Shown: positions 25,837 to 42,420 of the stretch, in pieces
Numbering within the stretch: the first letter of the stretch is position 1
Layout: each line of letters begins with the position of its first letter
DNA from: an uncultured Candidatus Saccharibacteria bacterium
GTDB taxonomy: Bacteria; Patescibacteriota; Minisyncoccia; Phycocordibacterales; UBA12445
Assembly: GCA_964531375.1 (NCBI GenBank)
Contig: CAZHDO010000003.1
Location: 17,983-81,982, forward strand
DNA length: 64,000 nt
Direction of reading: 5' to 3'
Made by a program: the position numbers and the translations under genes
Notes under the pieces: generated by a model
Told to the model about the DNA's origin: nothing
Database searches by the model: none
Seen by the model: only the letters and a program-made list of their open reading frames with translations

Positions 25837-25841
25837 ATTTT

Positions 25842-26612: not shown

Positions 26613-26634
26613 ATTATTTTAATTACTAACTTAT

Positions 26635-27177: not shown

Positions 27178-27369
27178 CTTAAATATTTTTAACTATTAAT
27201 CTTCCTTCTTCTTTAATAATTCTTAAAAAATCTTTTCCAACATCTATTAATGATGCCAACCGAGAAAAATCATTTCTAAAACAAAAAAGTACCTTATTCA
27301 GGTACATATAATTATTACATTGGTCTTTTTTAGAACTTGAAATTCTAAACAATTCTGGACAATTCCAGG

Positions 27370-28221
27370 CTATTTTGGGCTATTTCTTTTATGGGCGGAT
27401 ACTAGTTGCTCTATCAGCATATCGATATCTATTCCATTTTTTCGCAATTCTTCAACAGACACCTCTCTTCTAAAAAGAATATCTCTCTTGTTGCTTCTTT
27501 TTGGAAAAAAAGCTTTCAGTATCTGACCCTTGAATCCGAGACCATTTAACATATTTATAACTCTCTTGCTTTTTATTTCTTTCTTTATTTCCTGAGGAAG
27601 CTTTGCCAACTCAAGTTTCTCACCAGCATTGTCGTATAGATATTCAAAAAAAGTCATATTCTTTCCTGATGAATGCGGATAGCTAAGTAGACAGCCATTG
27701 ATCCAAATACCTCGTTCTTCTGTCGATACTTCAAATACTTTTGGAATATTGTAACCGGATGAATTCTTGCTTAATATTACTTCTGGTTTGTTGTCCGGTT
27801 CTCTAACAATAATGTTTTTATTATTTTCCATTTCCTCTTTGGCGACAAAAACAAGTTCTTTATATTTCACCTCAAAATCCTCTGCTAACTTTCGCAGATC
27901 TTCTTCATTTTTTCTAAATTCCGCAAAACGATTTTCTAGTTTAAGTTCCTCGTTCTTTTGATTAGAAAATTTGTAATGCTCTAAAAGAAAATCTCGTAAC
28001 GCATTAAAAGATTCGTTAAAAACTTTCCATGTGGAATTTATCTTAGAATCTGAGAACTGGGATAATATTTCACTTGACCAACTATCGTATTCTTGGAACA
28101 TCGCTAAATATCTTTCCACGGACTTTCCACTGGATAAAATCCGGATCAAGAATAATTCCACCTTCTGTTCTGGCAGTAGCTTTATAAATTTATTAAATCT
28201 TTCTTTATCTTCTAATATCAT
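27370..28221 (-). CDS. Hypothetical protein (283 aa); the last gene of the 13-gene block
   Basis: ORF only. It lies 12 nt downstream of the preceding gene. Confidence 0.4.
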   Translation of the reverse strand: MILEDKERFNKFIKLLPEQKVELFLIRILSSGKSVERYLAMFQEYDSWSSEILSQFSDSKINSTWKVFNESFNALRDFLLEHYKFSNQKNEELKLENRFAEFRKNEEDLRKLAEDFEVKYKELVFVAKEEMENNKNIIVREPDNKPEVILSKNSSGYNIPKVFEVSTEERGIWINGCLLSYPHSSGKNMTFFEYLYDNAGEKLELAKLPQEIKKEIKSKRVINMLNGLGFKGQILKAFFPKRSNKRDILFRREVSVEELRKNGIDIDMLIEQLVSAHKRNSPK

Positions 28222-28233
28222 GCATTTTTACTT

Positions 28234-28653
28234 TTACATCAACATTATTTCTGCAGTGCTCAATTCATCTTCTGCTTTTCTTTTGGCATCGATTGTATCC
28301 CAATTCAATAAGTGAATAGCTTCTACTAGCTCCGGGCGCATTCTCCAGTGTATAGCAGCCTCCTCAGGAAAATCAGCGAGAAAAGATACATTATAATTAG
28401 GATTCGGTAATTGATAATTCATCTGTTCGGCTATCTTTCCGGCTAATTTGCCGTATGGTAAGTTGGCATTAGAACCTCCAATTTTCCAACCCATTGCAGC
28501 TCCCATTATTTTAGAAGTAATTGTGTTGTCTGGAGAGAAATAATTCAATAGCAACATCCATCTTTCTTTATCTGTTAGAGGATTTTTCTTAAAATATTCA
28601 ACGAAGTCATTTACTGTTGGATAAGTTTTATTTCCTAATTCTTCTGATGTCAT
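28234..28653 (-). CDS. Hypothetical protein (139 aa)
   Basis: ORF only. It lies 7 nt downstream of the DUF2779-like gene. Confidence 0.4.
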   Translation of the reverse strand: MTSEELGNKTYPTVNDFVEYFKKNPLTDKERWMLLLNYFSPDNTITSKIMGAAMGWKIGGSNANLPYGKLAGKIAEQMNYQLPNPNYNVSFLADFPEEAAIHWRMRPELVEAIHLLNWDTIDAKRKAEDELSTAEIMLM

Positions 28654-28660
28654 ATTTTTA

Positions 28661-30160
28661 TTATTTATTATTAATCACCTCATTAAGTATCCTAAATATC
28701 TCAACCATAACAAATGTATCTTGTTTACAATATTCTTTAATCAGATATATTTTATTTGCTCGGTCTTTTGGCTCTTCTCCTTTATTAACAATATCTCCCC
28801 ACCAGACGAAACCTACATCATTACCAGTATATGGCAGATGGTCATAGGACATCTTGGGAAGTAATACGGTCATTACTGATTCTATCCCAGAACTACCTCC
28901 GAAATCTTTGTGGACATAATGCTGTTTTGAGAATACATCTCGAAGATCTTTCATTTGACGACAGATTCTGTTTAGGACTTTTTCGTATTTTGGAAGTCTA
29001 AGTCCGATCTCTTTGGTGACACCCTTCTCAAACGAAACATTCCAGGCAAGTACCGTACCCTTAGGGTCAACAATCTTTTCCAGTAGTTTTGCAACTGCTT
29101 CAGATGGGTCCGAATTCTCTTCGTGGAGATAATCTACATGGCGCAGTGGTCCGCCTTTCTGATCGATAATGTGCATTGAGAATTGAATAGGAATTCTTTG
29201 GTATGGTCTGAATCCAGAATATGCAGGTACTGCTGGGGCAAAGGTTTCGTAATCGAAGAAATAAAGAGGGTAAGTATATTCATCTAAAATATATGAGATC
29301 TCTTTCCTATCTATTATTTCTTCTTCTGTTTTGTGGGTATGAATTTGATTCTTTTGTGTCTCGGTAAAACCCTTGGTATCTGCTATCTCGTGCAAATGAT
29401 AAATACCATCTTTCACAAGCTTGGTCAGTTTTTTAGAAGTGATACGAGACAAATCGTGAATAGAATATTCCGGGAACTCCGGATGGGATATCTCGAAGGT
29501 GGCACAGTGACTTCTTCGTCCATAATAATGACAATCACATCCGACTGCCGGCTCTTTCGTTTGGTTCAGATATTCTTTAGCCTCTTCCATTTGTTTAGCA
29601 GTAGGAGCTTTCTTTGCAGAGACTTGATCGGTACTATCGTCAATTATAAAAAGCTTCTTAATATCTATCTCCCCATCACGAACATATTTATTATTTATAT
29701 GAACAATGAATTTTTTACCTATATCAATACCTGCCCGTTCCAAAACAATTACCTGAAAGGCAAGATCTGAAATATGATCTCTTGGCCCATCGTCATCTTT
29801 TTTTGAGCTCGAAGCTTTTACTTCATAGATATCCCATTTTTTAGTTTCAGAATTCCAAACAAGAAAATCACAACGGATTATATATCCATCAGCAACAAAT
29901 GTCGGCTGATAAATGGCCGGCACTTTTTGCGCCATAAGTTGCTCTATCTCTTTTGATGCCGAAAAATCATGATTCTTAACTTCAACGAAACCGGGAAATA
30001 ATCCCTTCGCATATTCCTCTACTGTATTCCCTTGATCCATTATATTCTGTTGCGACAGGGGTACTTCAAACTGTTCTAGTTCAGGTCTATTTAATCTAAA
30101 CCAAGCGTCCTTTGGACACATAAGATACTCAAGAAATCTGGATTTAGATATAAGTTTCAT
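28661..30160 (-). CDS. DUF2779-like nuclease: Cas4/RecB-type PD-(D/E)xK domain with Fe-S cysteines plus a C-terminal DEDD-like 3'-5' exonuclease region
   Basis: The N-terminus MKLISKSRFLEYLMCPKDAW is the DUF2779 hallmark. DGYIIRCDFLV...WDIYEVK gives the PD-(D/E)xK motif. CDCHYYGRRSHC together with the N-terminal Cys gives a 4-Cys cluster. FFDYETF is an Exo I-like DxE motif, and YCKQDTFVM is a Y-x4-D Exo III-like motif. Confidence 0.6.
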   Translation of the reverse strand: MKLISKSRFLEYLMCPKDAWFRLNRPELEQFEVPLSQQNIMDQGNTVEEYAKGLFPGFVEVKNHDFSASKEIEQLMAQKVPAIYQPTFVADGYIIRCDFLVWNSETKKWDIYEVKASSSKKDDDGPRDHISDLAFQVIVLERAGIDIGKKFIVHINNKYVRDGEIDIKKLFIIDDSTDQVSAKKAPTAKQMEEAKEYLNQTKEPAVGCDCHYYGRRSHCATFEISHPEFPEYSIHDLSRITSKKLTKLVKDGIYHLHEIADTKGFTETQKNQIHTHKTEEEIIDRKEISYILDEYTYPLYFFDYETFAPAVPAYSGFRPYQRIPIQFSMHIIDQKGGPLRHVDYLHEENSDPSEAVAKLLEKIVDPKGTVLAWNVSFEKGVTKEIGLRLPKYEKVLNRICRQMKDLRDVFSKQHYVHKDFGGSSGIESVMTVLLPKMSYDHLPYTGNDVGFVWWGDIVNKGEEPKDRANKIYLIKEYCKQDTFVMVEIFRILNEVINNK

Positions 30161-30163
30161 AAG

Positions 30164-31279
30164 CTATTTATCCCCATCATTTACCAACTTCGAAGTGACG
30201 GAGAGATTTTCAAGTTGTGCAATTCGTTCTTCTAATTTTTTGATTACTTCCTTGTCTTGTAAGATTATGCCCTTACTGGACAATTCTCTTACCTGCTTGT
30301 ACTTGTCATCAATTTCTTTTTCAAGCCTTTCGTTCGCCCTAAGAACTGAGTCGACCAATCTGAGTGTTAAATCATCCAAAACCTGACCATTTTCTCTTTT
30401 TGATTTATCTAACTCCTGTTTCGCTTTATCCTTTTCCGTACGATTTTTCTTTCCATCAATAAGTTTCCATTGGGCATACAGCACTACCAATCCCCCAAAA
30501 ATACCGCCGACTGCATTAGCAATAATTGGTGTATCGTTTGCTGTCCGCCATGCCGATTTCATATAATCAACAACATGGTATTTATCCCACAGATCAAATA
30601 TTATTTGTGGATCAAGATGCTGAAAAAAAGTGAGATCGATTGGTGACTTGCTTGTTATCTCACTTATGGATGTATACTTTTGTAAGTTTAAATCAAGATT
30701 TCTAGAATTTCTCATCCTAACTGTACGATATACACTTTTACTCAGGTCGTGGTAGTTACCATTTTCGTCGTACCTATCATCTCCTATTTTCGATGATTTA
30801 AATTTTGTGAGACTAATGCTGAGTTTAGATGCGTATTTAGTTCCAACCACACCTATTACACGTTCAACTTCAGGATGTTTTTTAAGAAATGGTTTAAATC
30901 TTTCTTCTATTTCACCTACATTCAGTGTTGCTTCTATCAAAACAAAAAAGATGTCGTTTTCAAACAACTCAGAAAGACCGTGTTCCTCAACCATCTTTCG
31001 ATATTCTCTTGCATGAAGATAACCTTTTTTCTTTGCGAACGATTCATTTAATTTACTAAATTTAGGTATCCCTTCACTAAGAATTTTTTCCAATAAAGTC
31101 TCCTTGTCTATCTTTATGGCAACAAAAAAGAGCAAAACATAAAATTGCATGTCTGCTTTTGTGGAATTTGCGATAGTATCTTTATAGAGAAAATTTACAA
31201 CCTCATCACGTAAATTAAGTAAGGAGAGATCTTTTAATCCCTTATCCTTTTCTTTAATTTTTACTTCTATCTTTTTCAT
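30164..31279 (-). CDS. Membrane-anchored coiled-coil protein (371 aa)
   Basis: It has a single TM helix (IIANAVGGIFGGLVVLY) followed by a long coiled-coil. Its start overlaps the Res stop (ATGA). Confidence 0.45.
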   Translation of the reverse strand: MKKIEVKIKEKDKGLKDLSLLNLRDEVVNFLYKDTIANSTKADMQFYVLLFFVAIKIDKETLLEKILSEGIPKFSKLNESFAKKKGYLHAREYRKMVEEHGLSELFENDIFFVLIEATLNVGEIEERFKPFLKKHPEVERVIGVVGTKYASKLSISLTKFKSSKIGDDRYDENGNYHDLSKSVYRTVRMRNSRNLDLNLQKYTSISEITSKSPIDLTFFQHLDPQIIFDLWDKYHVVDYMKSAWRTANDTPIIANAVGGIFGGLVVLYAQWKLIDGKKNRTEKDKAKQELDKSKRENGQVLDDLTLRLVDSVLRANERLEKEIDDKYKQVRELSSKGIILQDKEVIKKLEERIAQLENLSVTSKLVNDGDK

Positions 31280-34182
31280 ACATTCAGTAATACTGATACT
31301 GTAGAGCTAACTGTTATTTTTTCTGTTGGGACAATCACGTATCGCCACGGTTTTGCTATTCCATATTTACCAACATTCTTTGAAACTAACTCGCAATACT
31401 TATCTGCTGTTTTCTTTTTCTCTTGTATATCTAGATTGCCTATCTCCCCACTTGTTTTTACTTCAACCATTACAATTTCATTTTCAAATTCAACTATAAA
31501 ATCTGGCTCGTAGCGGTGTTGTGAATTGCCAAATTCGTCACGCCAATATAGTCCTTCAAATTGATTTGGGGCAGGTCGAAGCCAGTCTTCAACTGAACCA
31601 TCCCTGTCTAATAAATAAGCCAAACGTGCTTCGTCAGAGGAATCGAAACGATACATTGAGTGACAGGCCTTACTAAACCCCGTATAAATTCTATCTCTCG
31701 AAAAGCGATCAAATTGGGATTCTAGTGTGACAGGTTTCTCGTCAAAACTTCGGGAAATATTGTACTGTTCCAAATATGGTTTTGGTTCACGAATACCAGA
31801 CTCCAAATAGCCCTCGGACTTAAAATGTTTGTGATCCAATATTTGAGCGTATATTTCATTAGCTATTTGGCGTGTATTATTTTCTACCATCATCTTGAGG
31901 GTATTAACATCAGCCGTAAAAGATCTGTAGTATGTAGTCGCTTGTTTTGAAAGCTTGATCAACAATTCTTTCTGTTCATCGTAATCGATGAGAGGATGAT
32001 CGGAGTCAACTAAAACAGAAATGATCGTATTTTCAGGACTCTGAGCCCGACCCTCACCAAGACTCGATACGCGAGTAACTTCAGTCTCCCTACGTCCTTG
32101 ATGGGCAACACCAAATAAATCTTTTTCTTCTTTCCCCTGCAACGACTGCTCGAGTATTGAAGCTTCCGTAGCAAATCTACTTAATTTCTTTATATCCAAA
32201 TTAAAATCATCTATAACAAGCTCTCCATAGTGAGGTGTGAGCATTAACCTTGGAATAGGGATGTTACGAATCTCAATAGTTTCTTTAGAAATACGTCCGA
32301 TGCTCTCAAGCTCTTTTTTAGCAGGCTCACTTAAAATATTAAACAGTGAACTCTCTTCATATACAGTGCCACCAGTCTGCCCAACTCCTATTTTTCTTGC
32401 CTCATTCTTTGCGGTTATCTCCACAATTTCATTTACCTTATTTTGTATCGTTGCCACCTTAACATCCTCCGGGGTGTCTTCTCCTATAACAGCACTGACT
32501 GTTTTTGTCGCTTGCTCTTGGATTTCCTGCATTATCACCGGACTAGCCTTAATTTGATCCTGTATGCTTGTTACGAATGCCGACTGAACCTCAATAATTT
32601 CTTTTACTACTTTTGTATCATCAGTTGAAATACTTTCAATATTTGTTGGTTGAATAAGCTTAGAGTTGCGTGCTTCTTCAATAACTTTCGCGTAATTGTC
32701 ATGGGCAACAATCATCACACGATCTACTTTTTTGTTTCCAGTTTTTTCCCCGTATGGTAGACGGAGACCTCGGCCAATTGTTTGTTCAGTTAAAATCTGT
32801 GCAGCCGAAGATCGTATTGGTGCAATGGTATAAATATTAGAAACATCCCAACCCTCCTTAAGCATGTTCACGTGGATAACAATTTCTACAATATTATCAG
32901 GATGTTCAAGTGATATTAATTTTTCAATCGTTTCATCTGCTTCATCTCCCCTTGTTTTTGTATGAACCTCAATCACCCTTCCCTTATAGACACCGCCCCT
33001 AAAATCATCACTATCAATTAGTTTACGGAGCGCGCTGGCGTGGGCTGTATCTTTGGCTACTACAAGCATCACGGGCTTCACCTCCTGCTTATCATTTTCG
33101 AGCGCATAATCTTTTAAAGCTAACTTTGCTCGTTCGTGGAAAAAAGCGGCGAGCTGTAATTTACGAGCGTCTGTTTCTATAGATTCAGCGTCCAAATGAC
33201 TAAAATCGACATCAGCTTCCGTGCCAATCCATGGATCTTTCACATACCCATCACGAATAGCATCACCGAGATTATAGACATAGAAGATGTTTTTCTTGAG
33301 AACAAGTTCCGCACCCCTCCTTGTAGTAGTTGGGGCAAGATATGGCGTAGCGGTAAATTCAAGTCCAAATAACGGATCAATACGGTCAAGAGAACTCATT
33401 GCAGCATCGGCGTGATAGTGATGCGATTCATCCATCAACACAACCAGATCATCGAGTGACGCTAGGTGATCAAAGTAAGATAAAAGCCTCCCGTCTTCTA
33501 CTCCAAAAATTTCCGAACCTTTTGTAATACCCTTTTCCTTTTCTATATCTTTTTGTGCAAACTGCTGAATATTAAAAATATTTATTTCAATCTTATTTGC
33601 AAAGAGTTGTGCCGTTCGGCTTTGCACGTAGTTTTCTTTAATGATAATTTTTACATTTGAAGTAGTAAGTTCTTCAATCCCACGGAAAACATATTTGGGA
33701 TTATTGGCTTTGCTAAAATCATCTACCAGTTTACGGTAGATGGTATTACCCGGAGCAACAATCAAAAAATGTTGAACGCCATAAACAAGATAGAGATATG
33801 TCACAAAAGCACCCATGAGACGAGTTTTTCCCACACCAGTGGCAAGAGCGAAAGTATATGCTGGAAAGGTTCGTTCAAAAGCCTGAAATTGCTTCAATCC
33901 AGGGATTGTGTGCGTGTATTCTTTTGTCGCTTCTTCGATATCACTAACACTCCCACGGTTCCCCCTCTTCATTCTTGCTAATACTTTTTTACCAGCATCC
34001 CCCTCTAGAAAATCAGCGAAAAAATGCAAACTTTTTTCTTGCGGAGTTCGCAGGCTCATTGTGTTAGTTATATATTGTAGGGCTTGTTCTTTTTTCATAT
34101 TATTATTCATCAGAATCACTTTCTTCTTCAATTTCTTCCATTGCCCGCTCTTTAATAGGAAGTAGATACTCTTTCTTTCCAA
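31276..34182 (-). CDS. res: Type III restriction enzyme Res subunit (SF2 helicase plus C-terminal PD-(D/E)xK endonuclease)
   Basis: It has a motif I ATGVGKT, a motif II LMDESHH, and a C-terminal YEPDFIVEF...VMVEVK nuclease motif. The likely true start is the ATG at 34110 or 34098, overlapping or abutting the Mod stop. At about 940 aa it is typical of Type III Res. Confidence 0.75.
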   Translation of the reverse strand: MERKSIYFLLKSGQWKKLKKKVILMNNNMKKEQALQYITNTMSLRTPQEKSLHFFADFLEGDAGKKVLARMKRGNRGSVSDIEEATKEYTHTIPGLKQFQAFERTFPAYTFALATGVGKTRLMGAFVTYLYLVYGVQHFLIVAPGNTIYRKLVDDFSKANNPKYVFRGIEELTTSNVKIIIKENYVQSRTAQLFANKIEINIFNIQQFAQKDIEKEKGITKGSEIFGVEDGRLLSYFDHLASLDDLVVLMDESHHYHADAAMSSLDRIDPLFGLEFTATPYLAPTTTRRGAELVLKKNIFYVYNLGDAIRDGYVKDPWIGTEADVDFSHLDAESIETDARKLQLAAFFHERAKLALKDYALENDKQEVKPVMLVVAKDTAHASALRKLIDSDDFRGGVYKGRVIEVHTKTRGDEADETIEKLISLEHPDNIVEIVIHVNMLKEGWDVSNIYTIAPIRSSAAQILTEQTIGRGLRLPYGEKTGNKKVDRVMIVAHDNYAKVIEEARNSKLIQPTNIESISTDDTKVVKEIIEVQSAFVTSIQDQIKASPVIMQEIQEQATKTVSAVIGEDTPEDVKVATIQNKVNEIVEITAKNEARKIGVGQTGGTVYEESSLFNILSEPAKKELESIGRISKETIEIRNIPIPRLMLTPHYGELVIDDFNLDIKKLSRFATEASILEQSLQGKEEKDLFGVAHQGRRETEVTRVSSLGEGRAQSPENTIISVLVDSDHPLIDYDEQKELLIKLSKQATTYYRSFTADVNTLKMMVENNTRQIANEIYAQILDHKHFKSEGYLESGIREPKPYLEQYNISRSFDEKPVTLESQFDRFSRDRIYTGFSKACHSMYRFDSSDEARLAYLLDRDGSVEDWLRPAPNQFEGLYWRDEFGNSQHRYEPDFIVEFENEIVMVEVKTSGEIGNLDIQEKKKTADKYCELVSKNVGKYGIAKPWRYVIVPTEKITVSSTVSVLLNV

Positions 34183-35800
34183 ATTGGCACGCTTTCAAAA
34201 TTGACTGTGGTATTTTCTTAATAGTTATACGACCATCCACCTTTTCACATCCAGGTTCAAATTTCTTTGGACAAATAAGTAACGTCTCGTTGAAACCTAA
34301 ATGGCTCACAATCTGTTGGACCATCGCTACAGATAACATTTGTGTAGTTATATAAATACTATTGTTGCCTTGGCCCTTGCCATGTTTCCGATAATCAGAC
34401 GGACTTGGAGCGAACGTGTAGTTGGTAAGCTTACACATAGCGCGAATAAGCTTAGTGTCATTGTAATAGCTATCAATCACAGGATTACCAAATTCATCAA
34501 TTACTACAAAGCTTGGCGCCAGCTCGTAAAACTTAAATCCACCTCCTCCGTGCCAATTCACAGCTTCGCTGATTCCATTAGGATCTTCGGCGTCAACGAC
34601 TGCCTTCATTCGTTTATGCACGTGCGAATAAGCGTGATCTCCCATTTCTATCCCAATATAATTAAAATTCATTTTATGAGCTACTGCCGTTGTTGTGCCT
34701 GAGCCAAGAAACGAATCCAGAATCCAATCCTTACTAGACAAATTTGCTATTTCAAAAAAAGTCTTAATAAGCGATTCTGGTTTTTTAGAGTTTCGAAATT
34801 CAACCACACCTTCATATCCAACACGGTTGAAAGCTGCAGAAGCATCAAAAAAGGATGGATACGGAAGTTCTTTTGACGAAATTCGTGTTTGGGGTACTCC
34901 TTGAAAATAATTACCATTTTTCTTTTTAATATTTTCTGGTGAAAGAAAATATCTGTGGCCAGTTCCGTCATCTCCCATATTAGGGACCTCGTACAAAACA
35001 TTATGACCATCACTTTGAAGTCGTCCTTCAATATGAGCAACATAAAATCTACCACTACTGTTTCCTTCTCTTAACCCACCTCGAATATTAATCTTCTTAA
35101 GTCCAGTTTTATTTCCATCTGAACGGGTTAATTCATACTCACCAAATTTAAAAACATGACACTCCTTATTTCCCAGCAGAAGTTTTTCTCCGGCTCCAAT
35201 TGTTTTTACAGTCCATTCATAACCTTCATACGGATCAGCCGTGACCAACTGTTTTCTTTTTGAAATATTAAATTGATTTGTTTTTTGATAACAGTGTACA
35301 TATTCAGCGACATCGTGAATATCTTTGTCTCCCTTCAACATTCGCTCTGAGTGTCTAACTTTTATAATAAACGACGTAATAAAATTGTTTCTTTGGAAAA
35401 CTTCATCTAATAGGACTTTCAGATATGCTTGCTCTCCATTATCAATTTGTACAAAAATTACCCCATCATCCTTCAAAAGCATTCTTAACAACTCCAATCT
35501 AGGCCTCATAAGTGAGAGCCAAGTACTATGTTCCACACTGTCATCATAATGTTCAAAAGCATTACCGGTATTGTATGGGGGGTCAATATAAATGCATTTT
35601 ACTTTTCCTTCATACTCAGGAAGAAGCGCTTTTAGAGCGAGTAGATTGTCACCATGAATAATCATATTCTCCGTATCTTTGTCGCCATAGGACAAATCAG
35701 TTCGTTCTTCCAAAATGCGTGGTTCAATGTTAGCAATATCATACTCAGGATTATTCTTCCCGATCCATGTAAGCTCTAGTTTTTGTTTGTTGTTTGACAT
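34103..35800 (-). CDS. mod: Type III R-M Mod subunit (beta-class N6-adenine / N4-cytosine DNA methyltransferase)
   Basis: Motif IV IYIDPPYNTG precedes motif I LDSFLGSGTT, which is the beta-class permutation. The gene lies immediately upstream of, and is coupled to, res. Confidence 0.8.
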   Translation of the reverse strand: MSNNKQKLELTWIGKNNPEYDIANIEPRILEERTDLSYGDKDTENMIIHGDNLLALKALLPEYEGKVKCIYIDPPYNTGNAFEHYDDSVEHSTWLSLMRPRLELLRMLLKDDGVIFVQIDNGEQAYLKVLLDEVFQRNNFITSFIIKVRHSERMLKGDKDIHDVAEYVHCYQKTNQFNISKRKQLVTADPYEGYEWTVKTIGAGEKLLLGNKECHVFKFGEYELTRSDGNKTGLKKINIRGGLREGNSSGRFYVAHIEGRLQSDGHNVLYEVPNMGDDGTGHRYFLSPENIKKKNGNYFQGVPQTRISSKELPYPSFFDASAAFNRVGYEGVVEFRNSKKPESLIKTFFEIANLSSKDWILDSFLGSGTTTAVAHKMNFNYIGIEMGDHAYSHVHKRMKAVVDAEDPNGISEAVNWHGGGGFKFYELAPSFVVIDEFGNPVIDSYYNDTKLIRAMCKLTNYTFAPSPSDYRKHGKGQGNNSIYITTQMLSVAMVQQIVSHLGFNETLLICPKKFEPGCEKVDGRITIKKIPQSILKACQFGKKEYLLPIKERAMEEIEEESDSDE

Positions 35801-35808
35801 AATTATAA

Positions 35809-36387
35809 TTATTTTAGATGTGGACGAAGGAATATCTCGATTTCTTTTATAGCACCATCTACCTTTTTTGAAAACTCATCATTAACTCCAATGTTATATA
35901 TAATACTATCAGTACTATCACTAGAGCGTCCATCTAAATATAAACTTAGTCCGCTATATAGCTCTCTTACTAATGCATCTAGATTTAATTGTGCTTTCGT
36001 TGCCTCAGACCCCCATGATACTTCTGCTTCAAGTAATTCGGCTTCAAGATTTGTCCAAGCTTCTCTCACTTTATTCCATCGAACTGAATATACAGCCCTA
36101 TTCATCTTTTGATTGTCACTATATTCCTCTGCTTTAAATCCATTAACCTCAAGAGCCGACTGCATTTCGCCCAATGGAATGAAGGGGTTTCTCACAAATT
36201 TTATAGCATCTCTTAATTTTAGAGAGGCCTTTAGATACTTTCTGGCAATCTCGTAGTTTGTTTTTCCCATCATCTGCTTCCTCCACCCAACTAATCCAAA
36301 AATGGCAACCCCAGCTACAATAACAGCAGATATAGATGTTATAGAATTTGCGACAGTATTAAATATGATTTCTGTACTTGTAGACAT
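35809..36387 (-). CDS. Small membrane protein (192 aa) with an N-terminal TM helix and a helical C-terminal domain
   Basis: It has a TM segment SITSISAVIVAGVAIFGLVGW. It lies 2 nt after the SNF2 stop and 8 nt before the mod start. Confidence 0.45.
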   Translation of the reverse strand: MSTSTEIIFNTVANSITSISAVIVAGVAIFGLVGWRKQMMGKTNYEIARKYLKASLKLRDAIKFVRNPFIPLGEMQSALEVNGFKAEEYSDNQKMNRAVYSVRWNKVREAWTNLEAELLEAEVSWGSEATKAQLNLDALVRELYSGLSLYLDGRSSDSTDSIIYNIGVNDEFSKKVDGAIKEIEIFLRPHLK

Positions 36388-36389
36388 AA

Positions 36390-39300
36390 CTATATTATCT
36401 TCCAGCTTATGGTGAATAATATTTCTAACTTCGATCTTTGTTTTAACTGAGCCTCTACTTTCTTCAACAAATCCTCTTTTTTTAATTCAACCTCATCCTG
36501 TGCCTCGTATAATTTTCTACGCATTTCATTTCTTTTTTTCTCAGAATCCTTTATTTCCCGTTGAGCTTTAAGTTTATCATCAAGGTCAATAATTTTCTTA
36601 GCATTTGTCTTGGCTGCCTTAATATCAATATCAAGCTTTCTCAAATCAAGTTCGAGAGCTTTCTTTACATCTTCTGACCAATTATCCAGTTTATCCACTT
36701 CGTCATCAAAAAATTCTGCATTCCTTTGCATAATTTGTCCTGAAATTACCGAGATATTTTGATTTTCAAGCTCTTCTATTTTTTTGCGTGCCTCAGGTGA
36801 AAATATTTTTGGTGTAACCGACTGTGCAGAAAGTGAAAATAACTTTTTTATACTGTCCGATTCGATTGACTCCCCTGTTTCATTAATAGCAGACACAACG
36901 ACAGCATCTTCTGATTCAAAAGCTTCAACTGTATAATTTGAGACTTTTAACATTCCGCTTTTACCAACCAGTGGTTCTAGTACAGAAATAATTGATGAGT
37001 GATTTGAGTAATCAAAAACAATCTCTGCTTCATCAACTTGTTTGTTTTTTACTTCATTCAAAATCCTCTGTGCTAAAGAGTGTCCGGGGCGATACACGTG
37101 AGCATCTTCTACATTTTTACCGATTTTATATGGACCCTGATCGATATCCTCGTTTGGAAATGGATTGGTTTTAAGAGAAAAAGAATATTCGTGATCGGAA
37201 AAATCAGCATTATCACCCAAATAGTAACGAGTAACATCCCACAACCAGCGATTATATGTGTCCAAATAGGCTTCGCCTTCTTTTTTATTGATCTTTAATT
37301 TTTCATGCACCTCCGCATCGAAATTTTCTAAGAGCTTCTGTCGAGTGTCGGATAAGTTACTTTTTATACTCTCGTCCATTTCTTCCTGAAGTTTATCAAA
37401 GGCAATATTGATGTCTTCAGACGTTCTGCATGTTTGATAAATACCGGCTATGCGTTTTTCGAAATCGACACCGGACTCAATAGATCCTAACACTTCATCA
37501 CTCGCACCGAACACACCTTTAAACAATTTGAATTTCTGATCCAACAGTTCATATACACGCTGGTCTGCTGCGTTTTTTCTATTAACAAAGTTGATTACGA
37601 CGACATCGTGTTTCTGACCATAGCGATGACAGCGACCAATACGTTGTTCAATTCTTTGTGGATTCCACGGTAAATCATAGTTAATTACCAAAGAACAAAA
37701 TTGTAAATTAACACCCTCAGCTCCCGCCTCAGTGGCGATCATAATTTCTGCTTCATCTCTAAAATATTCAATGAGTGCCGCTCGAGTATCAGCTGTTTTT
37801 GAACCAGTTACTTTGTCAGTGTCCTTATTTCTTGCAAGCCAACTTTTATATATCTCTTTTGATTTTTCATCGTTATTTGAACCGTTAAACAAAACAATTT
37901 TATCCTTATATCCATTATTAGCGAGGAGGGTCTCAGCAAGATATCGTTGTGTGATAGTAGATTCAGTGAAAATTATAGCTTTCTTTTTAGCACCCAACTC
38001 AGCAGTCATCTCAAATCCTTTTTTTAGTGCAGTAATTAAGGCATCTCCTTTGGAGTTCGTGTATATTTTCTGCGCGAGATTACGGAATTTTTCCAGATCA
38101 GCTTTTTCCTGCTCCATGAGTACAATATCTTTCTCTGTGAGAGCTTTCTTTTCCTTCTCATCTTCATCGTCTTCGCTCTCCTCATCATCAATCCATTCAT
38201 CTGATATTTCTGGAAGAGCTTCGAAATCTTGAAGGAGCGAAATAGTACCATCATCTTGTTGTGGTATTTTTGCTTTTGTGTCCACGATCAACTGCCTGAG
38301 CTTATATACCAGCTTATCTAATGTACTAGCGATAGCGAAGGAAGACGATGCCAAAAGCTTTCTCAAGATGAGTGTCATGAGCTGACGCTGACTAAAAGGT
38401 AAAGCGTAGAGCTTTGCCCGCTGAAGATACTCGGACATACCATCATAAAGTTGAACTTCCTGTTCGGTTGGAATATAGTCTTGCGTTATTGGTTTTCGCT
38501 CTGTGTAATTGATATATTCTAGTACTTGGCGACGGAGTGTACGGATACAAACAGGTTTTAGGCGATTGCGTAAATCAACGAACATTTCCTGTTTGGGCTC
38601 AAGAAGACCAACTTCGTTTTCATATATATCTTGCTCACGGGAAACTCTTGCATAATTTGCTTTAAAACTTTTAAGATCCCCGAATACATGATCATCAATA
38701 ATACTAACAAGTCCATAAAGTTCGAGAAGGGAGTTTTGTAATGGGGTCGCAGTAAGTAAAATTTTCGGTACTTCTTCTAATGCTTTCTTTATCTCTTGCG
38801 CAATTTTATTGCTTTTTTTATATACATTGCGTAAACGATGTGCTTCATCAATAACCGCTAAATCCCATTTTGTTTGTTTTATATATGAAGATTTAGATCG
38901 AGCAAAGTGATAAGAACAAATAATTATTTTGTCTTCTTGATTAAATGGATTCAGGTTTCCGTCTTTTATATATTGATTAAAAGATTTTGCCTCAAGAATT
39001 ATCGAAGGTAAAAAGAATTTCTCCGAAAGTTCATCGTTCCATTGTTTTCGTAAGCTCGAAGGGACAATCAAAAGAATACTCCTCTTTCTCTCAGCCCATT
39101 TTTGAGAAAGAACTAACCCGGCCTCAATAGTTTTTCCAAGACCAACCTCATCAGCTAAAATTGCGCCCTTCGAAAGCGGTGAGCGAAAAGCAAAAAGGGC
39201 CGCCTCAATTTGGTGTGGGTTTAGGTCTACTTGAGCATTAGATAGTGTAGAAGAAAGTTTTTCCAAACTATTGGAAGAACATCGTTTTGTCAGCTCATAA

Positions 39301-39419
39301 GCAAAATATTTAGCGTGTTGGGCGGTTATTTTCATTTTGCCAGTATACAATAAAGAGGCGGAAAAATCGCCTTGAAAGAATGGCGTTTGTATTTTACAAA
39401 CCTCGCTTTCTATTCCCAA
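36390..39419 (-). CDS. SNF2-family (SWI2/SNF2, RapA-like) helicase with a C-terminal coiled-coil extension
   Basis: Motifs: I ADEVGLGKT, II DEAHRLRN, III LLLTATPLQNSL, VI RIGRCHRYGQ. The roughly 350-aa C-terminal extension ends in a coiled-coil. The track start is a TTG. An in-frame ATG, MKITAQHAKYF, at 39335 is the more likely start. Confidence 0.8.
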   Translation of the reverse strand: MGIESEVCKIQTPFFQGDFSASLLYTGKMKITAQHAKYFAYELTKRCSSNSLEKLSSTLSNAQVDLNPHQIEAALFAFRSPLSKGAILADEVGLGKTIEAGLVLSQKWAERKRSILLIVPSSLRKQWNDELSEKFFLPSIILEAKSFNQYIKDGNLNPFNQEDKIIICSYHFARSKSSYIKQTKWDLAVIDEAHRLRNVYKKSNKIAQEIKKALEEVPKILLTATPLQNSLLELYGLVSIIDDHVFGDLKSFKANYARVSREQDIYENEVGLLEPKQEMFVDLRNRLKPVCIRTLRRQVLEYINYTERKPITQDYIPTEQEVQLYDGMSEYLQRAKLYALPFSQRQLMTLILRKLLASSSFAIASTLDKLVYKLRQLIVDTKAKIPQQDDGTISLLQDFEALPEISDEWIDDEESEDDEDEKEKKALTEKDIVLMEQEKADLEKFRNLAQKIYTNSKGDALITALKKGFEMTAELGAKKKAIIFTESTITQRYLAETLLANNGYKDKIVLFNGSNNDEKSKEIYKSWLARNKDTDKVTGSKTADTRAALIEYFRDEAEIMIATEAGAEGVNLQFCSLVINYDLPWNPQRIEQRIGRCHRYGQKHDVVVINFVNRKNAADQRVYELLDQKFKLFKGVFGASDEVLGSIESGVDFEKRIAGIYQTCRTSEDINIAFDKLQEEMDESIKSNLSDTRQKLLENFDAEVHEKLKINKKEGEAYLDTYNRWLWDVTRYYLGDNADFSDHEYSFSLKTNPFPNEDIDQGPYKIGKNVEDAHVYRPGHSLAQRILNEVKNKQVDEAEIVFDYSNHSSIISVLEPLVGKSGMLKVSNYTVEAFESEDAVVVSAINETGESIESDSIKKLFSLSAQSVTPKIFSPEARKKIEELENQNISVISGQIMQRNAEFFDDEVDKLDNWSEDVKKALELDLRKLDIDIKAAKTNAKKIIDLDDKLKAQREIKDSEKKRNEMRRKLYEAQDEVELKKEDLLKKVEAQLKQRSKLEILFTISWKII

Positions 39420-39479
39420 AAGATACTGGACATTTCCTCATTTAACACCCCAACAAAAAGAAGAGGGGTTCTACGATTT

Positions 39480-41240
39480 TCAATCCAATTCCTTGTAGTC
39501 CACTTTTAAGAATCGGTTTCTCCTGTTGAAACTGGCTCTCGTATGCTCCTTTATTTTTAGTTTAATTTGTTTTTGCCTTTCTTCGTTCTCGATCTTATCC
39601 CTATTAAGAGTGAGAATATATTGAAAATTTGTTTTAACCTCCTGTTCGGCTAAGAAGTTTAAACTCTGAACCAGTGTATCCTGATCAACATCAAATATAT
39701 TATCGTGTATTAGAAACATTGGATGCCTTTTGTTTGTGTCTTTGTTGAGCATTAAGCTTATGTCGTAGATGAATACTTTGGTTCTATCAACACTGTGACT
39801 ACCATCGTCCGGTATTCTCAAGTCCAATTTGACAATCTGTTTACTAGACGCTTTATTTACTGTCGATATGTCAAAAGAAACCCCTGCGTTTCCCATAATA
39901 TACTCATTTATTTCTGCAATTGTTTTATTGAAATCCTTAATAACCTTACTTATCTCGAATATCTTTGCATCTAGCTCAGAAAACAGATTGTCTTTTTTAA
40001 TTCTCAAGATAACCACTTCACGATTAATTCTTTCAAATTCGTCTAGATTAGCTTGAGTGGTAGCGTATTCATCCTTTTTCTTCGTATAAGTATAAAAACC
40101 TTCTTTTAAGATACTAAGTGAATCATTTTTATCGACATGAATAAGGAGGTCAGCTCTTTTTTCATCCAAAGAATTAAGCTCTTCTTGAATTTTTTGAACC
40201 TCTGACCTTACTTCATCGGCCCTCTCATTTATAAGAAGATTTTGATATTTCTCAATCTTCTTTTTAAAGTCCAAAATTTCATTTATTGACTTGGAAACGA
40301 TCTCGCCTAGACCCGCCTTAAATTTATCGTAAACAATCTGAATGTCACTCGTATTTATATTTTCTACCTTAGGCATAGACTCAATGCGCCTAAGCTCATA
40401 CTTTAAAGCAATCTGTCTCGTTCTAAGTTTTTCTATATTAGAATCTATTTTAACTAATATATCTTGGTTCTGTTGGAAAATTGGTTCAACTCTAAATTTA
40501 TCCAGAGAATCTCCAGCCCTAGATAGCTCCAATTCAAGAGCGTTAAGTTCCGCCTTAACATCAGATATTTTTTTCTTCCCTGAATCCGTTATTCTTTTCT
40601 TAATATGACCTTGTGTTTGAGATTTTTCTTCAATCTCCTTAATAATCTTCTTCATTTCCTTAACAAGAAGAGGGTTAATACCAAAGAGGTATAAATGTGT
40701 CTTAACTAGATCCGAATTCGGAATTTTTTCTCTAAGATCATAACAGTTTACGATATCCTTAAATTCTGAGTTTTCGTCTCTAATCAGTGGGCCTATAAGT
40801 TCTCTAAAACTTGGTCTGTCTAATTTATCTTCCTTATTTTTTTCATAAAAAAGATTAGTCAAATACAAAAGGGCATCGTTCGTGTTTTTATACAAACTAA
40901 TATCACCATCCACTTCTATTGACGGTTTGTCCGGGTCATTTATTGTCCGTTCAATCGTCACTTTTTTGCCGTCTATTACTAAGTCCAAACAAATTCTTGT
41001 ATCATAAGAAAACTTATCGAAAGGAATCTTGGTCACACGACTAGAATCGGCATCTTTAAAGAGACAAAAATTAATAAATTCAACCGACATTGATTTTCCT
41101 ACTCCATTAGTTTTTTTATCTTTACGGGGTCCTGATTTCGCTTCAGAAACTTTTTCACCTAAAATAAGGTTAACACCTTCTCTAAATTCAATAGGATCAA
41201 AAGTTGGCGGTATTGAGTATAATTTTAGTATTTTAATCAT
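39480..41240 (-). CDS. ABC/SMC-like ATPase with a long coiled-coil insert (DUF2326-like; ABC-3C-type ATPase candidate)
   Basis: It has an N-terminal P-loop KTNGVGKS, about 250 aa of coiled-coil, and a C-terminal Walker B/D-loop region PMFLIHDNIFDVDQDTL. Confidence 0.6.
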   Translation of the reverse strand: MIKILKLYSIPPTFDPIEFREGVNLILGEKVSEAKSGPRKDKKTNGVGKSMSVEFINFCLFKDADSSRVTKIPFDKFSYDTRICLDLVIDGKKVTIERTINDPDKPSIEVDGDISLYKNTNDALLYLTNLFYEKNKEDKLDRPSFRELIGPLIRDENSEFKDIVNCYDLREKIPNSDLVKTHLYLFGINPLLVKEMKKIIKEIEEKSQTQGHIKKRITDSGKKKISDVKAELNALELELSRAGDSLDKFRVEPIFQQNQDILVKIDSNIEKLRTRQIALKYELRRIESMPKVENINTSDIQIVYDKFKAGLGEIVSKSINEILDFKKKIEKYQNLLINERADEVRSEVQKIQEELNSLDEKRADLLIHVDKNDSLSILKEGFYTYTKKKDEYATTQANLDEFERINREVVILRIKKDNLFSELDAKIFEISKVIKDFNKTIAEINEYIMGNAGVSFDISTVNKASSKQIVKLDLRIPDDGSHSVDRTKVFIYDISLMLNKDTNKRHPMFLIHDNIFDVDQDTLVQSLNFLAEQEVKTNFQYILTLNRDKIENEERQKQIKLKIKEHTRASFNRRNRFLKVDYKELD

Positions 41241-41464
41241 TTTTTATAGATATATGGCTCAGCAAATTCGACTATCCCTGCCTGATACAAAAAAATAAGG
41301 GAAAATATAACCTGTCTGTGATTTATCGTGCCTAATTCCTGTTTCAAATTTACAAAAATTTCATCTAACATTAACTTTTGTTCTTTCGCTTTTGAAATCT
41401 TTTTTAAAATCAAAAAGCCGAGATAAGGTGAAGATGTTTTAATTTTTTCATCTTTACTAATCAT
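41237..41464 (-). CDS. Small alpha-helical protein (75 aa), a candidate middle component of the three-gene ABC ATPase module
   Basis: It is coupled by 4-nt overlaps to both of its neighbours. Confidence 0.4.
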   Translation of the reverse strand: MISKDEKIKTSSPYLGFLILKKISKAKEQKLMLDEIFVNLKQELGTINHRQVIFSLIFLYQAGIVEFAEPYIYKK

Positions 41465-42420
41465 TTCTCATTTGGAAATACATTGCACTTAATAAGCTCA
41501 TCTAATAGATAAAACCTTATCGCCAGATAATCGTGTTTTTTACCCTTATTACTAATCTCGCTTGAAAAATACTCAGTTAGATTATCAAGGGCCTTTTTAG
41601 GATCACCGTCGGCTTGAGTTAAAAAGATATCGCTTTTAATTCTTAAGAAATTTCGTATAAAATCAATTTTTACAGAATCAAGACCTAGTTTTTCATCCAC
41701 CTCACTGCGAGCCAGAGAATATCTCGGCAACAAATCAATTATCTGAGATTTTAAAAACTTTGATTTATCTGCAAACCGATACTCAATCTTGTGGCCCGGA
41801 TCCGGTTCCTCTGTCCAATTCTTATCGCTTATTTCTTTATTATTACTCAAGAAGACAACAAGATCAGCAATCGTCTCTACCTCATTCGTTAGGACCTGTT
41901 CAGATTTACGATCCTTTTGACTATCAAACTCATCTCTCAAAAGATCATGTATCTCTCTTATTTTTGAAGCATCAAGCGGCCTAATCACCTTAACTAATTT
42001 TGACAAGGTTATAATATCTTCATTTTGATCGAAAGACACATTCTTGGGACCCTTGATTTTTGCCTTAAAATTAAGTTTCTTCGTTGTTATTATTAAGAAT
42101 TTTAAAGAGTCAAATTTAGAAGAGAGTCCACTGTCTTCGAATTTTTTTATTGTTTCCTTAATTTTCTTAAGAGTAGTTTCCGATGTAACTTGGAATGAAA
42201 TCTTTCTTGCTCCATCACCCAGGTCAACAGATGGGAAACTCGACTTAAGTATATTTAAATTAACTAGATTTAAATCAAAAACCTTATTCAATAATTTACA
42301 AAAAACATCTTCTAAAAAGATATTTATATCTGTAAGCCCGTTGCTATTACTATTCTTAGTCGATGATTCAATACGAGAAAAGTAATCAATTATTTGATTG
42401 ATAAGATTTTGATTCTCCAC
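41461..42420 (-). CDS. Hypothetical protein (319 aa); the first gene of the block and a candidate sensor/effector partner of the ABC ATPase
   Basis: It overlaps the 75-aa gene by 4 nt. I recognised no catalytic motif. Confidence 0.4.
   Translation of the reverse strand: MENQNLINQIIDYFSRIESSTKNSNSNGLTDINIFLEDVFCKLLNKVFDLNLVNLNILKSSFPSVDLGDGARKISFQVTSETTLKKIKETIKKFEDSGLSSKFDSLKFLIITTKKLNFKAKIKGPKNVSFDQNEDIITLSKLVKVIRPLDASKIREIHDLLRDEFDSQKDRKSEQVLTNEVETIADLVVFLSNNKEISDKNWTEEPDPGHKIEYRFADKSKFLKSQIIDLLPRYSLARSEVDEKLGLDSVKIDFIRNFLRIKSDIFLTQADGDPKKALDNLTEYFSSEISNKGKKHDYLAIRFYLLDELIKCNVFPNEK

Follow-up and report, generated by a model that had tools for sequence, protein, structure and literature searches.

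A probable mosaic defence island in the Patescibacteria (CPR), centred on helicase-assisted Type III restriction

The tightly packed minus-strand genes g1 to g11 (Table 1) most probably form a mosaic defence island of the Patescibacteria (CPR) that was built by gene embedding, possibly on an integrated mobile element. We consider it likely that the island consists of separable modules packed in one or two transcription units and that there is no single 11- or 13-gene machine. The overall arrangement is an ordinary one: a Type III system of the known helicase-assisted kind, with unrelated defence genes lodged within it or next to it. Both of its main features have precedents, since helicase-like ATPases encoded 5' of Type III genes and the embedding of defence genes are each on record. 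Two of the proteins, the small membrane proteins g5 and g8, are uncharacterised and turn up repeatedly within restriction operons.

Table 1. Features of the block and its flanks in the window (the whole 64-kb stretch of DNA analysed)
Feature	Coordinates	Strand	Description
46-nt direct repeat, second copy	42491-42536	.	upstream of g1; repeat family D2
g1, SMEK effector, 319 aa	41461-42420	-	N-terminal SMEK domain
g2, ABC-3C middle-component-like, 75 aa	41237-41464	-	Pfam MC6, sub-threshold
g3, SMC/ABC-type ATPase, 586 aa, LmuB-like	39480-41240	-	long coiled-coil middle region
g3-g4 spacer, 144 nt	39336-39479	-	separates ABC-3C cassette from SNF2
g4, SNF2-family ATPase, 981 aa	36390-39335	-	DrmD/RapA-related; conserved 5' partner of Type III system
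g5, guest in SNF2/Mod slot, 192 aa	35809-36387	-	N-terminal TM helix and four-helix bundle
g6, Type III Mod methyltransferase, 565 aa	34103-35800	-	DPPY motif, variable central recognition domain
g7, Type III Res helicase-nuclease, 940 aa	31276-34098	-	start ATG 34098
g8, guest directly after res, 371 aa	30164-31279	-	alpha/beta domain, TM helix, C-terminal coiled coil
g9, DUF2779 protein, 499 aa	28661-30160	-	Cas4-like PD-(D/E)xK nuclease and exonuclease-like domain
g10, 139 aa	28234-28653	-	no match in any profile library
g11, 283 aa	27370-28221	-	C-terminal ~125 aa a widespread modular domain
Two terminator-like hairpins after g11	27289-27368	-	TTTTTTGTTT follows second hairpin
Mobile-element module adjoining ychF	22143-26612	-	recombinase, loaders, resolvase N-domain ORF
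Resolvase N-domain ORF	26121-26612	-	Resolvase 3.3e-9
DnaC-like and DnaD-like loaders	24294-25836	-	PHROGs DnaC-like 2e-30, DnaD-like 2.5e-7
Large serine recombinase	22143-23705	-	Pfam Recombinase, Resolvase, Zn_ribbon_recom; PHROGs integrase 3e-59

Across more than 100 homologue loci, the conserved unit was solely SNF2-Mod-Res (g4, g6 and g7), which was intact wherever a triad locus offered sufficient sequence, generally without the other genes of the block. Judged by this conservation, the triad is the genuine multi-gene core of the block. The SNF2 protein matches Pfam SNF2-rel_dom (4e-36) and Helicase_C (4e-21) as well as the PADLOC DrmD model (1.2e-210), and its closest solved structure is RapA. 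The best 120 of its 8000 scored homologues are 75-92% identical and represent many CPR lineages; a homologue in a Bacteroidota genome is 81% identical. The methyltransferase (Pfam N6_N4_Mtase, 7e-34; PADLOC MTase_III, 2e-130) has no conservation among close relatives at residues ~156-337. The Res protein matches ResIII (7.5e-19) and a TnsA-like endonuclease domain (2e-5) in Pfam and REase_III in PADLOC (3.7e-130), contains a PDF...EVK motif near its C-terminus, and has an alternative ATG start that overlaps the mod stop.

The families of g5, g8 and g9 recur beside restriction systems of several types. Homologues of g5 occupy Type I-like, Type IIG-like and EcoRI-methylase/HNH operons, have TIR or HEPN neighbours, or lie in housekeeping contexts. 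Embedding of g5 was seen in four or more RM operons, which differ in type and have gaps of -16 to 7 nt, and the SNF2, Mod or Res of the window adjoined its homologues at 0 of 23 loci. For g8, which has no fold match in the PDB, homologues were found 3' of a nuclease gene in five of seven independent contexts (Type III and Type II, gaps of -4 to ~30 nt). The 4-nt overlap of g8 with res is kept in a relative (L038), and this overlap and the tight spacing of g4-g11 also fit selected co-expression and physical interplay. The g9 protein (Pfam DUF2779, 1.6e-37; PADLOC Cas4, 1.2e-7) combines the Cas4-like nuclease, with four cysteines, and a 3'-5' exonuclease-like domain with an RNase H fold. Among 80 metagenome loci with g9 homologues, ~9 placed the gene beside a Type III-like Mod or Res; other homologues were 3' of Type I genes, and many were in housekeeping contexts (e.g., RpoC, DnaG). 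At loci L048, L049, L115, L123 and L120, DUF2779 also comes immediately after a large gene for a Res-like or HsdR protein. To judge from these neighbourhoods, the association of g5, g8 and g9 with several restriction types is non-random and recurrent, which leaves room for a degree of functional interplay, for example in a backup or guard role. Their contexts also make g5 and g8 new guilt-by-embedding defence candidates.

These recurrences would fit an alternative explanation in which g4-g9 are functionally tied to restriction. The g5 and g8 proteins would then be anchored in the membrane as guards or adaptors, keeping watch on the restriction enzymes or positioning them, by analogy with PrrC in EcoprrI, and DUF2779 would process the cleaved DNA. 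PrrC, the classical case of an embedded gene, provides a precedent (Payne et al., 2024). However, each of the three families is also found without an RM neighbour, as in g5 homologues adjoining an aminoacyl-tRNA synthetase, SecA or beta-lactamase-family gene or a g8 homologue 3' of a Schlafen-like helicase. Most triad relatives lack all three genes, and we regard this explanation as unlikely.

Relatives of the triad carry a variety of other guests, in some cases in the SNF2/Mod slot that g5 occupies here. The guests in or after the triad include PDC-S13 (L031, 2e-122), an LmuB/mad3-like ATPase together with HEPN_AbiV (L033-35), IS256 and an Abi protein on a Salmonella IncFIB plasmid, a DUF262 protein between mod and res on a Rhizobium plasmid, and a Dsr1-like protein 3' of res (L024). 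The IS256 transposase in the same slot on the Salmonella plasmid and the recombinases that flank many homologue loci could point to a passive genomic sink, in which unrelated or selfish cargo builds up on a mobile element in restriction operons that tolerate it. This would also accommodate g5, g8, g10 and g11, none of which matched a defence model. Yet the identifiable guests are mostly known or candidate defence genes, and g5 and g8 are well conserved (~90-100 homologues, with invariant residues and confident structure models), which makes a passive sink quite improbable. The last two genes of the block were absent from all 80 g9-homologue loci; g10 was also missing from every other fetched locus and g11 from viral contigs. 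Profile searches gave no family match for g11, and 337 representative clusters match it, mostly over residues ~155-283 and at the C-terminus of proteins of 130-600 aa.

The homologue neighbourhoods of the triad relatives contained g1-g3 in no case. The first gene, which starts with GTG and has a TATAAT hexamer 7 nt upstream, encodes a protein matching SMEK_N (Pfam, 1.3e-39; NCBIfam, 5.5e-27) and the PADLOC Aga_REase-PNTD model (3.8e-43). The small g2 gene shares 4 nt with each of its neighbours g1 and g3, and g3 matches Pfam DUF2326 (1.3e-22) and, over its full length, the PADLOC candidate PDC-M68B (7.8e-57). Two copies of a 46-nt repeat (39364-39409 in the g3-g4 spacer and 42491-42536), 78% identical, bracket this 3.1-kb stretch; the 22-nt degenerate core of the repeat occurs at only two sites in the window, both of them source copies, versus 0 expected by chance. 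By domain content and neighbourhood, g1-g3 is a separate cassette of ABC-3C or short-Lamassu-like type with a SMEK effector. ABC-3C systems are reportedly the subject of work by Krishnan et al. in 2020.

The spacer after this cassette measures 144 nt because g4 starts at ATG 39335 and not at an upstream TTG; the NCBI call is 981 aa and nearly all homologues are ~981 aa long. Consensus matches within it include a terminator-like hairpin (39372-39356) and a TATACT hexamer 6 nt ahead of the g4 ATG. A scan of the block for terminators, which like the promoter-like sites are consensus matches, saw no strong terminator upstream of the end of g11, and terminator-like sites with a T-run only 3' of g11. 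Promoter-like sites were fewer than in shuffled sequence. The gaps of ≤12 nt and the position of the T-run sites suggest that g4-g11 are plausibly co-transcribed.

An earlier note had counted 13 co-directional genes between 42420 and 27370, with no gap above 60 nt. The coordinates give 11, as do the 10 gaps and 11 products that the note itself lists, and a 13-gene minus-strand run is reached only with an extension to 26121. The minus-strand ORFs are indeed uninterrupted, but this is not distinctive in a window where 55 of 67 ORFs are on the minus strand and another such run comprises 18 genes. The coordinates bear out nine of the ten intergenic distances given there (-4, -4, 2, 8, overlap, -4, 3, 7 and 12); the exception is the 60-nt figure, which needs the TTG start of g4. 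Packing is nevertheless tighter in the block than elsewhere in the window, with a median same-strand gap of 2.5 nt versus 21.5 nt outside and 90% versus 45% of the gaps at ≤15 nt, and the block is the window's longest chain with every gap ≤60 nt.

Pfam and PADLOC upheld the earlier domain calls (ABC ATPase with DUF2326, SNF2, Type III Mod, Type III Res and Cas4-like/DUF2779 nuclease), and profile searches reduced the products listed as four unknowns, since g1 (SMEK_N, 1e-39) and g2 (MC6-like) are both recognisable. The view of islands as neighbouring systems that each have their own promoter is outdated, embedding inside other systems being common (Payne et al., 2024); 96.7% of embedded defence genes share the orientation of the host system (Payne et al., 2024). 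The proposal of an integrated super-system fails because homologue neighbourhoods (>100 loci) show the genes of the block occurring independently. Overlaps with translational coupling and very short gaps all along the block, the lack of a strong internal terminator, and the action of every recognisable product on nucleic acids would suit a system in which all 11 (or 13) genes, from the ABC ATPase through the membrane proteins, act together, but we give it hardly any credence: no related locus exceeds SNF2-(g5)-Mod-Res-(g8), g5, g8 and g9 are mostly found away from the triad, a 144-nt gap with a hairpin sets off g1-g3, and these three genes match a self-contained system already described. The tight spacing is instead probably attributable to embedding and a compact CPR genome. 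Furthermore, serine recombinase and replication-loader genes adjoin the block, so it may be the cargo of an integrated mobile element.

By family inference, the SMC-like ABC ATPase g3 would sense aberrant or foreign DNA and release the SMEK effector g1 through the small middle component g2, and the effector would probably abort infection. In the triad, Mod probably acts as a dimer that marks one strand of an asymmetric site, and Res would slide along DNA with ATP and cut unmethylated DNA. The SNF2 protein would most likely work on DNA as a translocase or remodeller, helping or regulating the Type III enzyme there. The g5, g8, g9, g10 and g11 genes would be guests inserted in or appended to the triad operon, most likely independent or backup defences carried by the transcription of the host operon. 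Of these, the Cas4-like nuclease and exonuclease of g9 could break down restriction fragments.

Like ABC-3C and short Lamassu systems, g1-g3 combine an effector, a small middle component and an SMC-like coiled-coil ABC ATPase in the same order. SMEK is among the short-Lamassu effectors, and ABC-3C systems served as a seed set for their study (10.1101/2025.04.02.646746). By contrast, g3 has no match to PADLOC LmuB models at E ≤0.01 and g2 scores below the Pfam MC6 gathering threshold (1.3e-4; 22.3 bits versus 27.2). Class 1 DISARM (DrmD-DrmMI-DrmA-DrmB-DrmC) shares with the triad a DrmD-type SNF2 protein, to which g4 is most similar, and after it a methylase (adenine or N4/N6) and then a restriction component of helicase type. 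However, g4 stays below the equivalog cut-off of the NCBIfam DISARM_DrmD_b model (699.9 bits versus 950), the block lacks DrmA/DrmB (DUF1998) and DrmC (PLD), the g6 methylase belongs to PF01555 and not pfam13659, and restriction falls to a canonical Type III Res.

A close likeness, matched by architecture, is to the Type III systems with an extra helicase-like ATPase found in more than 500 genomes (Murray et al., 2021; PMC8259958), in which the SNF2-Mod-Res architecture is already described and the role of the ATPase is unknown. BspHIV/Eco86II have the same ATPase-mod-res order, with the ATPase consistently co-localised with Mod and Res in many genomes, and the ATPase-mod interval of such loci may hold a non-coding gap or an insert, as here (PMC8259958). 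Compared by description, their ATPase resembles g4 in having helicase motifs, no nuclease motif (no nuclease domain was found in g4) and no homology to Res. The characterised examples are m4C enzymes (PMC8259958), whereas the DPPY motif of g6 suggests m6A. Guest genes are not described in that paper, and the present example is a CPR genome with guests. In this it resembles the loci of guilt-by-embedding (Payne et al., 2024): the guests are on the same strand, tightly spaced between or directly after the genes of the host system, vary among related hosts, and are in many cases known defence genes.

The block contains 11 successive minus-strand open reading frames (ORFs; g1–g11 in order of transcription) rather than the 13 genes counted in an earlier note, whose own 10 gaps and 11 products also give 11; a 13-gene run is obtained only by adding two more genes, down to position 26121. 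Nine of the ten quoted gaps were exact, the exception being the spacer between the ABC ATPase (g3) and SNF2 (g4) genes. The quoted 60 nt presupposes a TTG start for g4. The NCBI call for the gene itself and for nearly all of its listed homologues (979–985 aa) has instead an ATG start, so the spacer is 144 nt long. It contains a terminator-like hairpin and, 6 nt ahead of the ATG, a TATACT hexamer. Hexamers similar to a -10 element end 6–7 nt before the starts of both g1 and g4, and no obvious Shine-Dalgarno sequence precedes either gene. Leaderless transcripts of g1 and g4 from separate promoters are a possibility. A promoter scan was uninformative (42 sites seen versus 62 expected).

The window is AT-rich (~35% GC), compact (~90% coding) and strongly strand-biased. 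The minus strand holds 55 of the 67 ORFs of at least 70 aa, with a separate run of 18 genes outside the block. The co-directionality of the block is merely genome background, but the tight packing that had been claimed along with it is real because the gaps are shorter than in the rest of the window (same-strand median of 2.5 versus 21.5 nt; 90% versus 45% of gaps at or below 15 nt) and terminator-like hairpins with a proper T-run occur solely just after g11. Caution is needed, since genes of a compact genome that are closely coupled and co-directional cannot on that ground be taken for one machine.

HMM searches on each protein, the first check proposed for the block, identified a known Type III restriction-modification (RM) triad (g4, g6 and g7) and a Lamassu-like cassette (g1–g3), and left g5, g8, g10 and g11 unmatched. 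The g6 protein is a canonical Type III Mod (PF01555, 7e-34; PADLOC MTase_III, 2e-130) with a DPPY motif and a central recognition region that is swapped even among close relatives. The g7 protein is a canonical Type III Res (ResIII, 7.5e-19; TnsA-like nuclease domain, 2e-5; PADLOC REase_III, 3.7e-130) with a C-terminal PD...EVK motif, and the start of its gene is next to the mod stop or overlaps with it. The pair has the components of Type III RM systems, namely a beta-class N6/N4 amino-methyltransferase with a variable TRD and an adjacent helicase-nuclease. The g4 protein has SNF2 and Helicase_C domains only and no nuclease domain, and is thus a nuclease-less ATPase encoded 5' of mod. Its nearest family is DrmD (PADLOC, 1.2e-210; NCBIfam DISARM_DrmD_b, 699.9 bits, under the 950 cut-off) and its nearest solved structure is RapA.

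The best 120 of 8000 scored g4 homologues are 75–92% identical and come from many CPR lineages and one Bacteroidota genome; full-length homologues with 43–52% identity are carried on plasmids. In 14 loci fetched around five g4 homologues, SNF2-Mod-Res was kept wherever the sequence was sufficient, and none of g1–g3, g5 or g8–g11 was present. Overall, the triad is retained in at least 12 independent loci from CPR, Bacteroidota, Salmonella and Rhizobium, while its inner positions hold varying guests (by our count, about 5 of 12 independent loci have an insertion inside the triad). This identifies the triad as the conserved unit and its internal positions as sites into which other defence genes insert repeatedly. 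The guests of the relatives L024, L031 and L033 are known or candidate defence genes. The SNF2 protein is 75–76% identical in L031 and L033 versus 37–38% for Res, and Mod has a different recognition domain there; going by these identities, the Mod-Res pair appears to have been exchanged against a conserved SNF2 gene. We also considered whether L033 has a homologue of g9 in the RNase_H_2 protein encoded ahead of SNF2, but its N-terminal match is only marginal (E 0.007), making it an analogue at best. An HTH gene precedes SNF2 in relatives, and no remnant of it was found in the window.

Coordinates and gene orders of features in the window and in related loci (L-numbers)
Locus	Coordinates	Feature or gene order
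Window	27370-42420 (minus)	Block, g1 to g11
Window	27370-27850	g11 C-terminal domain
Window	39335	g4 ATG start
Window	39342-39347	TATACT hexamer before g4 (ATG)
Window	42428-42433	TATAAT hexamer before g1 (GTG)
Window	39372-39356	Terminator-like hairpin, g3-g4 spacer
Window	39364-39409; 42491-42536	46-nt direct repeat
Window	42614-43606 (plus)	SDH-type ClpP-like protease gene
Window	43627-43678	21-bp inverted repeat
Window	21209-27177	Mobile-element-like module
Window		3' of g11: Pol-beta-like protein, resolvase N-domain ORF, DnaD-like and DnaC-like loaders, large serine recombinase abutting ychF
L024/L026	17387-20785 (Dsr1-like, L024)	HTH-SNF2-Mod-Res, then 1132-aa Dsr1-like protein (9e-50)
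L036		SNF2-Mod-Res-T5orf172-PDDEXK
L031	13008-13847 (guest)	SNF2-(PDC-S13, 2e-122)-Mod-Res
L033-35	13177-16193 (guests, L033)	SNF2-(64 aa, LmuB/mad3-like ATPase, HEPN_AbiV)-Mod-Res
Salmonella IncFIB plasmid		Recombinase-HTH-SNF2-(IS256, Abi protein, hypothetical)-Mod-Res
Rhizobium plasmid		Recombinase-HTH-SNF2-Mod-(DUF262)-Res
L001		HsdR-like gene and N6_Mtase/S gene, then g5
L002		HSDR_N/N6_Mtase gene, g5, 158-aa ORF, Methylase_S
L005, L011	1-4084 (L005); 8836-11727 (L011)	EcoRI-type methylase, g5, GmrSD_N/HNH
L013		NucS-like nuclease upstream of g5; N6_Mtase-family genes close by
L017		g5 with TIR protein
L006		g5 with weak HEPN_AbiU2-like match
Other g5 loci		Housekeeping: aminoacyl-tRNA synthetase, SecA, ComM, beta-lactamase-family gene
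Window, L038		g8 after Type III Res, identical 4-nt overlap
L127		Mod, 260-aa ORF, ResIII, g8
L128		C5 methylase, N4/N6 methylase, HNH, g8
L040-42	7609-11110 (L040)	HTH, EcoRI methylase, GmrSD_N/HNH, g8
L043		g8 after Schlafen-like helicase
L129		g8 after unknown small genes

Two small transmembrane proteins, g5 and g8, are the guests of the triad in the window. The g5 protein (NCBI entry WCO84_02480, encoded on a 93-kb contig of the Patescibacteria/CPR metagenome-assembled genome) has 91 homologues, for the most part in CPR. Its 23 genome loci (CPR, Chloroflexia, Acidobacteria, Planctomycetes, Verrucomicrobia and Bacteroidetes) matched g5 alone in tblastn searches with all block proteins, and no SNF2, Mod or Res of the window. 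The idea of a free-standing g5 gene was overturned by Pfam searches of its neighbours, which are frequently other restriction or defence genes, including RM systems of other types. An 86%-identical relative (L130) retains SNF2-g5-Mod-Res. The g8 protein has 104 homologues centred on CPR, and its gene lies directly 3' of another gene in seven independent contexts (a restriction nuclease gene in five of them); g9–g11 were found in none of these relatives' loci. Both genes lie between or directly after system genes on the same strand and have homologues embedded elsewhere (g5 in the window, L130, L001, L002, L005 and L011; g8 in the window, L038, L127, L128 and L040–42). An operon of an EcoRI-type methylase and a GmrSD_N/HNH nuclease recurs in CPR, with g5 homologues between both genes (L005, L011) or a g8 homologue after the nuclease gene (L040). 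Searches of Pfam, NCBIfam, PADLOC and PHROGs returned no match for g5, g8 and g10, nor did Pfam, PADLOC and PHROGs for g11. PHROGs and relaxed-threshold Pfam searches gave nothing usable for these four proteins, and viral-contig scans with g5, g8 and g11 found no relatives.

The g9 gene codes for a DUF2779 protein, a family described in the literature as widespread and uncharacterised. In it, a Cas4-like nuclease that has four cysteines is joined to a predicted 3'-5' exonuclease. Among 80 metagenome loci fetched for g9, about nine have Type III-like Mod/Res genes nearby, and in four of those (L048, L049, L115 and L123) g9 sits immediately 3' of a large Res-like gene, in tight coupling with it. 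Elsewhere it follows a Type I HsdR (L120), N6_Mtase/S genes (L085 and L097) or a NOV_C protein (L047), or adjoins RpoC and DnaG, or AcrB. No partner family is conserved across the 80 loci, and g8, g10 and g11 are missing from all of them. We examined ORFs of 139–143 aa after g9 homologues (L123 and L115) as counterparts of g10, and ORFs of 365–369 aa before g9 homologues as counterparts of g8; BLASTP and phmmer revealed no similarity in either case and Pfam had no match. The 365–369-aa protein precedes DUF2779 by 2–9 nt in two sub-lineages (L073–L076, L096, L104, L117 and L118); the one in L074 has a weak NucS_C-like match and is unrelated to g8 despite its similar size and position. At its C-terminus (~125 residues), g11 carries a modular domain that recurs in 337 representative clusters, each time as the C-terminal part and preceded by unrelated N-termini of 0–450 aa. 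No Pfam model matches this domain, which by eye resembles a winged-helix DNA-binding domain.

The first three genes fit the ABC-3C/short-Lamassu family in domain content and order. The effector-domain gene is placed first (g1; SMEK_N, 1.3e-39), and SMEK is among the effectors given for short Lamassu (Lamassu preprint, 10.1101/2025.04.02.646746). The g2 protein (75 aa) scores below the gathering score of MC6 (22.3 versus 27.2 bits; E 1.3e-4) and has the size and position of the middle component. The g3 protein is an SMC-like ABC ATPase with a coiled-coil insertion, a Walker A-like NGVGKS motif, a C-terminal DUF2326 (1.3e-22) and a PADLOC PDC-M68B match over residues 4–567 (7.8e-57); we regard it as a divergent family member because none of the PADLOC LmuB models matched. 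On either side of the 3.1-kb cassette, the intergenic region carries one copy of a 46-nt direct repeat that has no other sites in the window; the two copies are 78% identical and share an exact core of 13 nt (AAATCGCCTTGAA). The repeat could be a scar left when the cassette was inserted, or else an operator or other regulatory element common to both sites.

The region downstream of g11 resembles a mobile element: adjoining the housekeeping gene ychF, it includes DnaC-like and DnaD-like helicase loaders, a Pol-beta-thumb protein and a separate 163-aa resolvase N-domain ORF. The ORF of the large serine recombinase shares 143 nt with ychF, and the resolvase domain that it encodes seems to be truncated at the N-terminus. 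In L028, L031, L038, L127, L129 and both plasmids, the triad or g8 is likewise flanked by serine recombinases. Because recombinases stand beside the block and its relatives, the block may be the cargo of an integrated mobile element. No tRNA gene marks an integration site in the window, and a repeat search of the window found no convincing att sites or element boundaries. On the other side, 21 nt past the stop of the ClpP-like protease gene, the sequence has a perfect inverted repeat of 21 bp around a loop of 10 nt. This repeat probably terminates transcription in both directions, and the island may have its right edge there.

The earlier note saw in the coupling of the block a sign of an integrated super-system, to be judged by the linkage of its genes among homologues. 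None of more than 100 related loci has g1–g3, g10 or g11 alongside the triad, and g5, g8 and g9 each recur in only a minority of related loci. The super-system is therefore refuted by the note's own criterion. Judged from its sequence, the block is instead a known Type III subgroup with a Lamassu-like cassette and embedded guests, all of known kinds. In the cassette, the SMC-like ATPase would sense aberrant or foreign DNA and release the SMEK effector. The Type III enzyme would methylate one strand of an asymmetric site and cleave unmethylated DNA after ATP-triggered sliding, with SNF2 as a putative accessory translocase or remodeller; g9 could degrade the restriction fragments, and g5 and g8 would be independent or backup membrane-associated defences riding on the operon.

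What remains of interest is the unexplained SNF2 partner, together with g5 and g8, which keep turning up as satellites of restriction operons. These two are conserved, confidently folded (by prediction) membrane proteins without annotation, found repeatedly inside restriction operons of unrelated types, and are candidates for new defence or restriction-accessory functions. An improbable further reading is that they found two uncharacterised families of small membrane-anchored restriction guards or adaptors, with a physical coupling to restriction enzymes whatever their type. Such proteins would either trigger membrane-level abortive infection once a phage anti-restriction protein disables the enzyme (a PrrC-like logic) or hold enzymes at the DNA entry site of the ultra-small CPR cells. 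If so, g4–g9 would be a layered, functionally linked unit, though still not the full 11-gene block. To our knowledge, CPR (Patescibacteria) mostly lack CRISPR, and restriction-centred islands therefore probably make up a large share of their defence. In CPR, the SNF2-assisted Type III architecture is mobile as well as highly conserved; since enterobacterial plasmids carry it too, it is amenable to experiments.

Among known systems, the triad has the same architecture, in gene order and domains, as a subgroup of Type III systems (BspHIV and Eco86II) with an extra helicase-like ATPase gene 5' of mod (Murray et al., 2021; PMC8259958). This ATPase has no nuclease motif and no known role, and over 500 genomes encode it beside Mod and Res; for Eco86II, it was undetected in a partially purified preparation that cut DNA in vitro (Murray et al., 2021). 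BREX-related and YprA/ARMADA systems were rejected as matches since their published descriptions show different architectures. Despite the DrmD-like SNF2 protein, the triad is not a class 1 DISARM system because the block and its flanks lack a DrmA-type protein, DUF1998 (DrmB) and PLD (DrmC), and the methylase is of another family. Embedded defence genes share the orientation of their host system in 96.7% of cases, and embedding has been proposed to serve co-regulation or linked transfer, or to provide a backup, as PrrC does in EcoprrI (Payne et al., 2024). The block adds an example of such embedding from outside that study, which covered neither this phylum nor SNF2-associated Type III as a host system.
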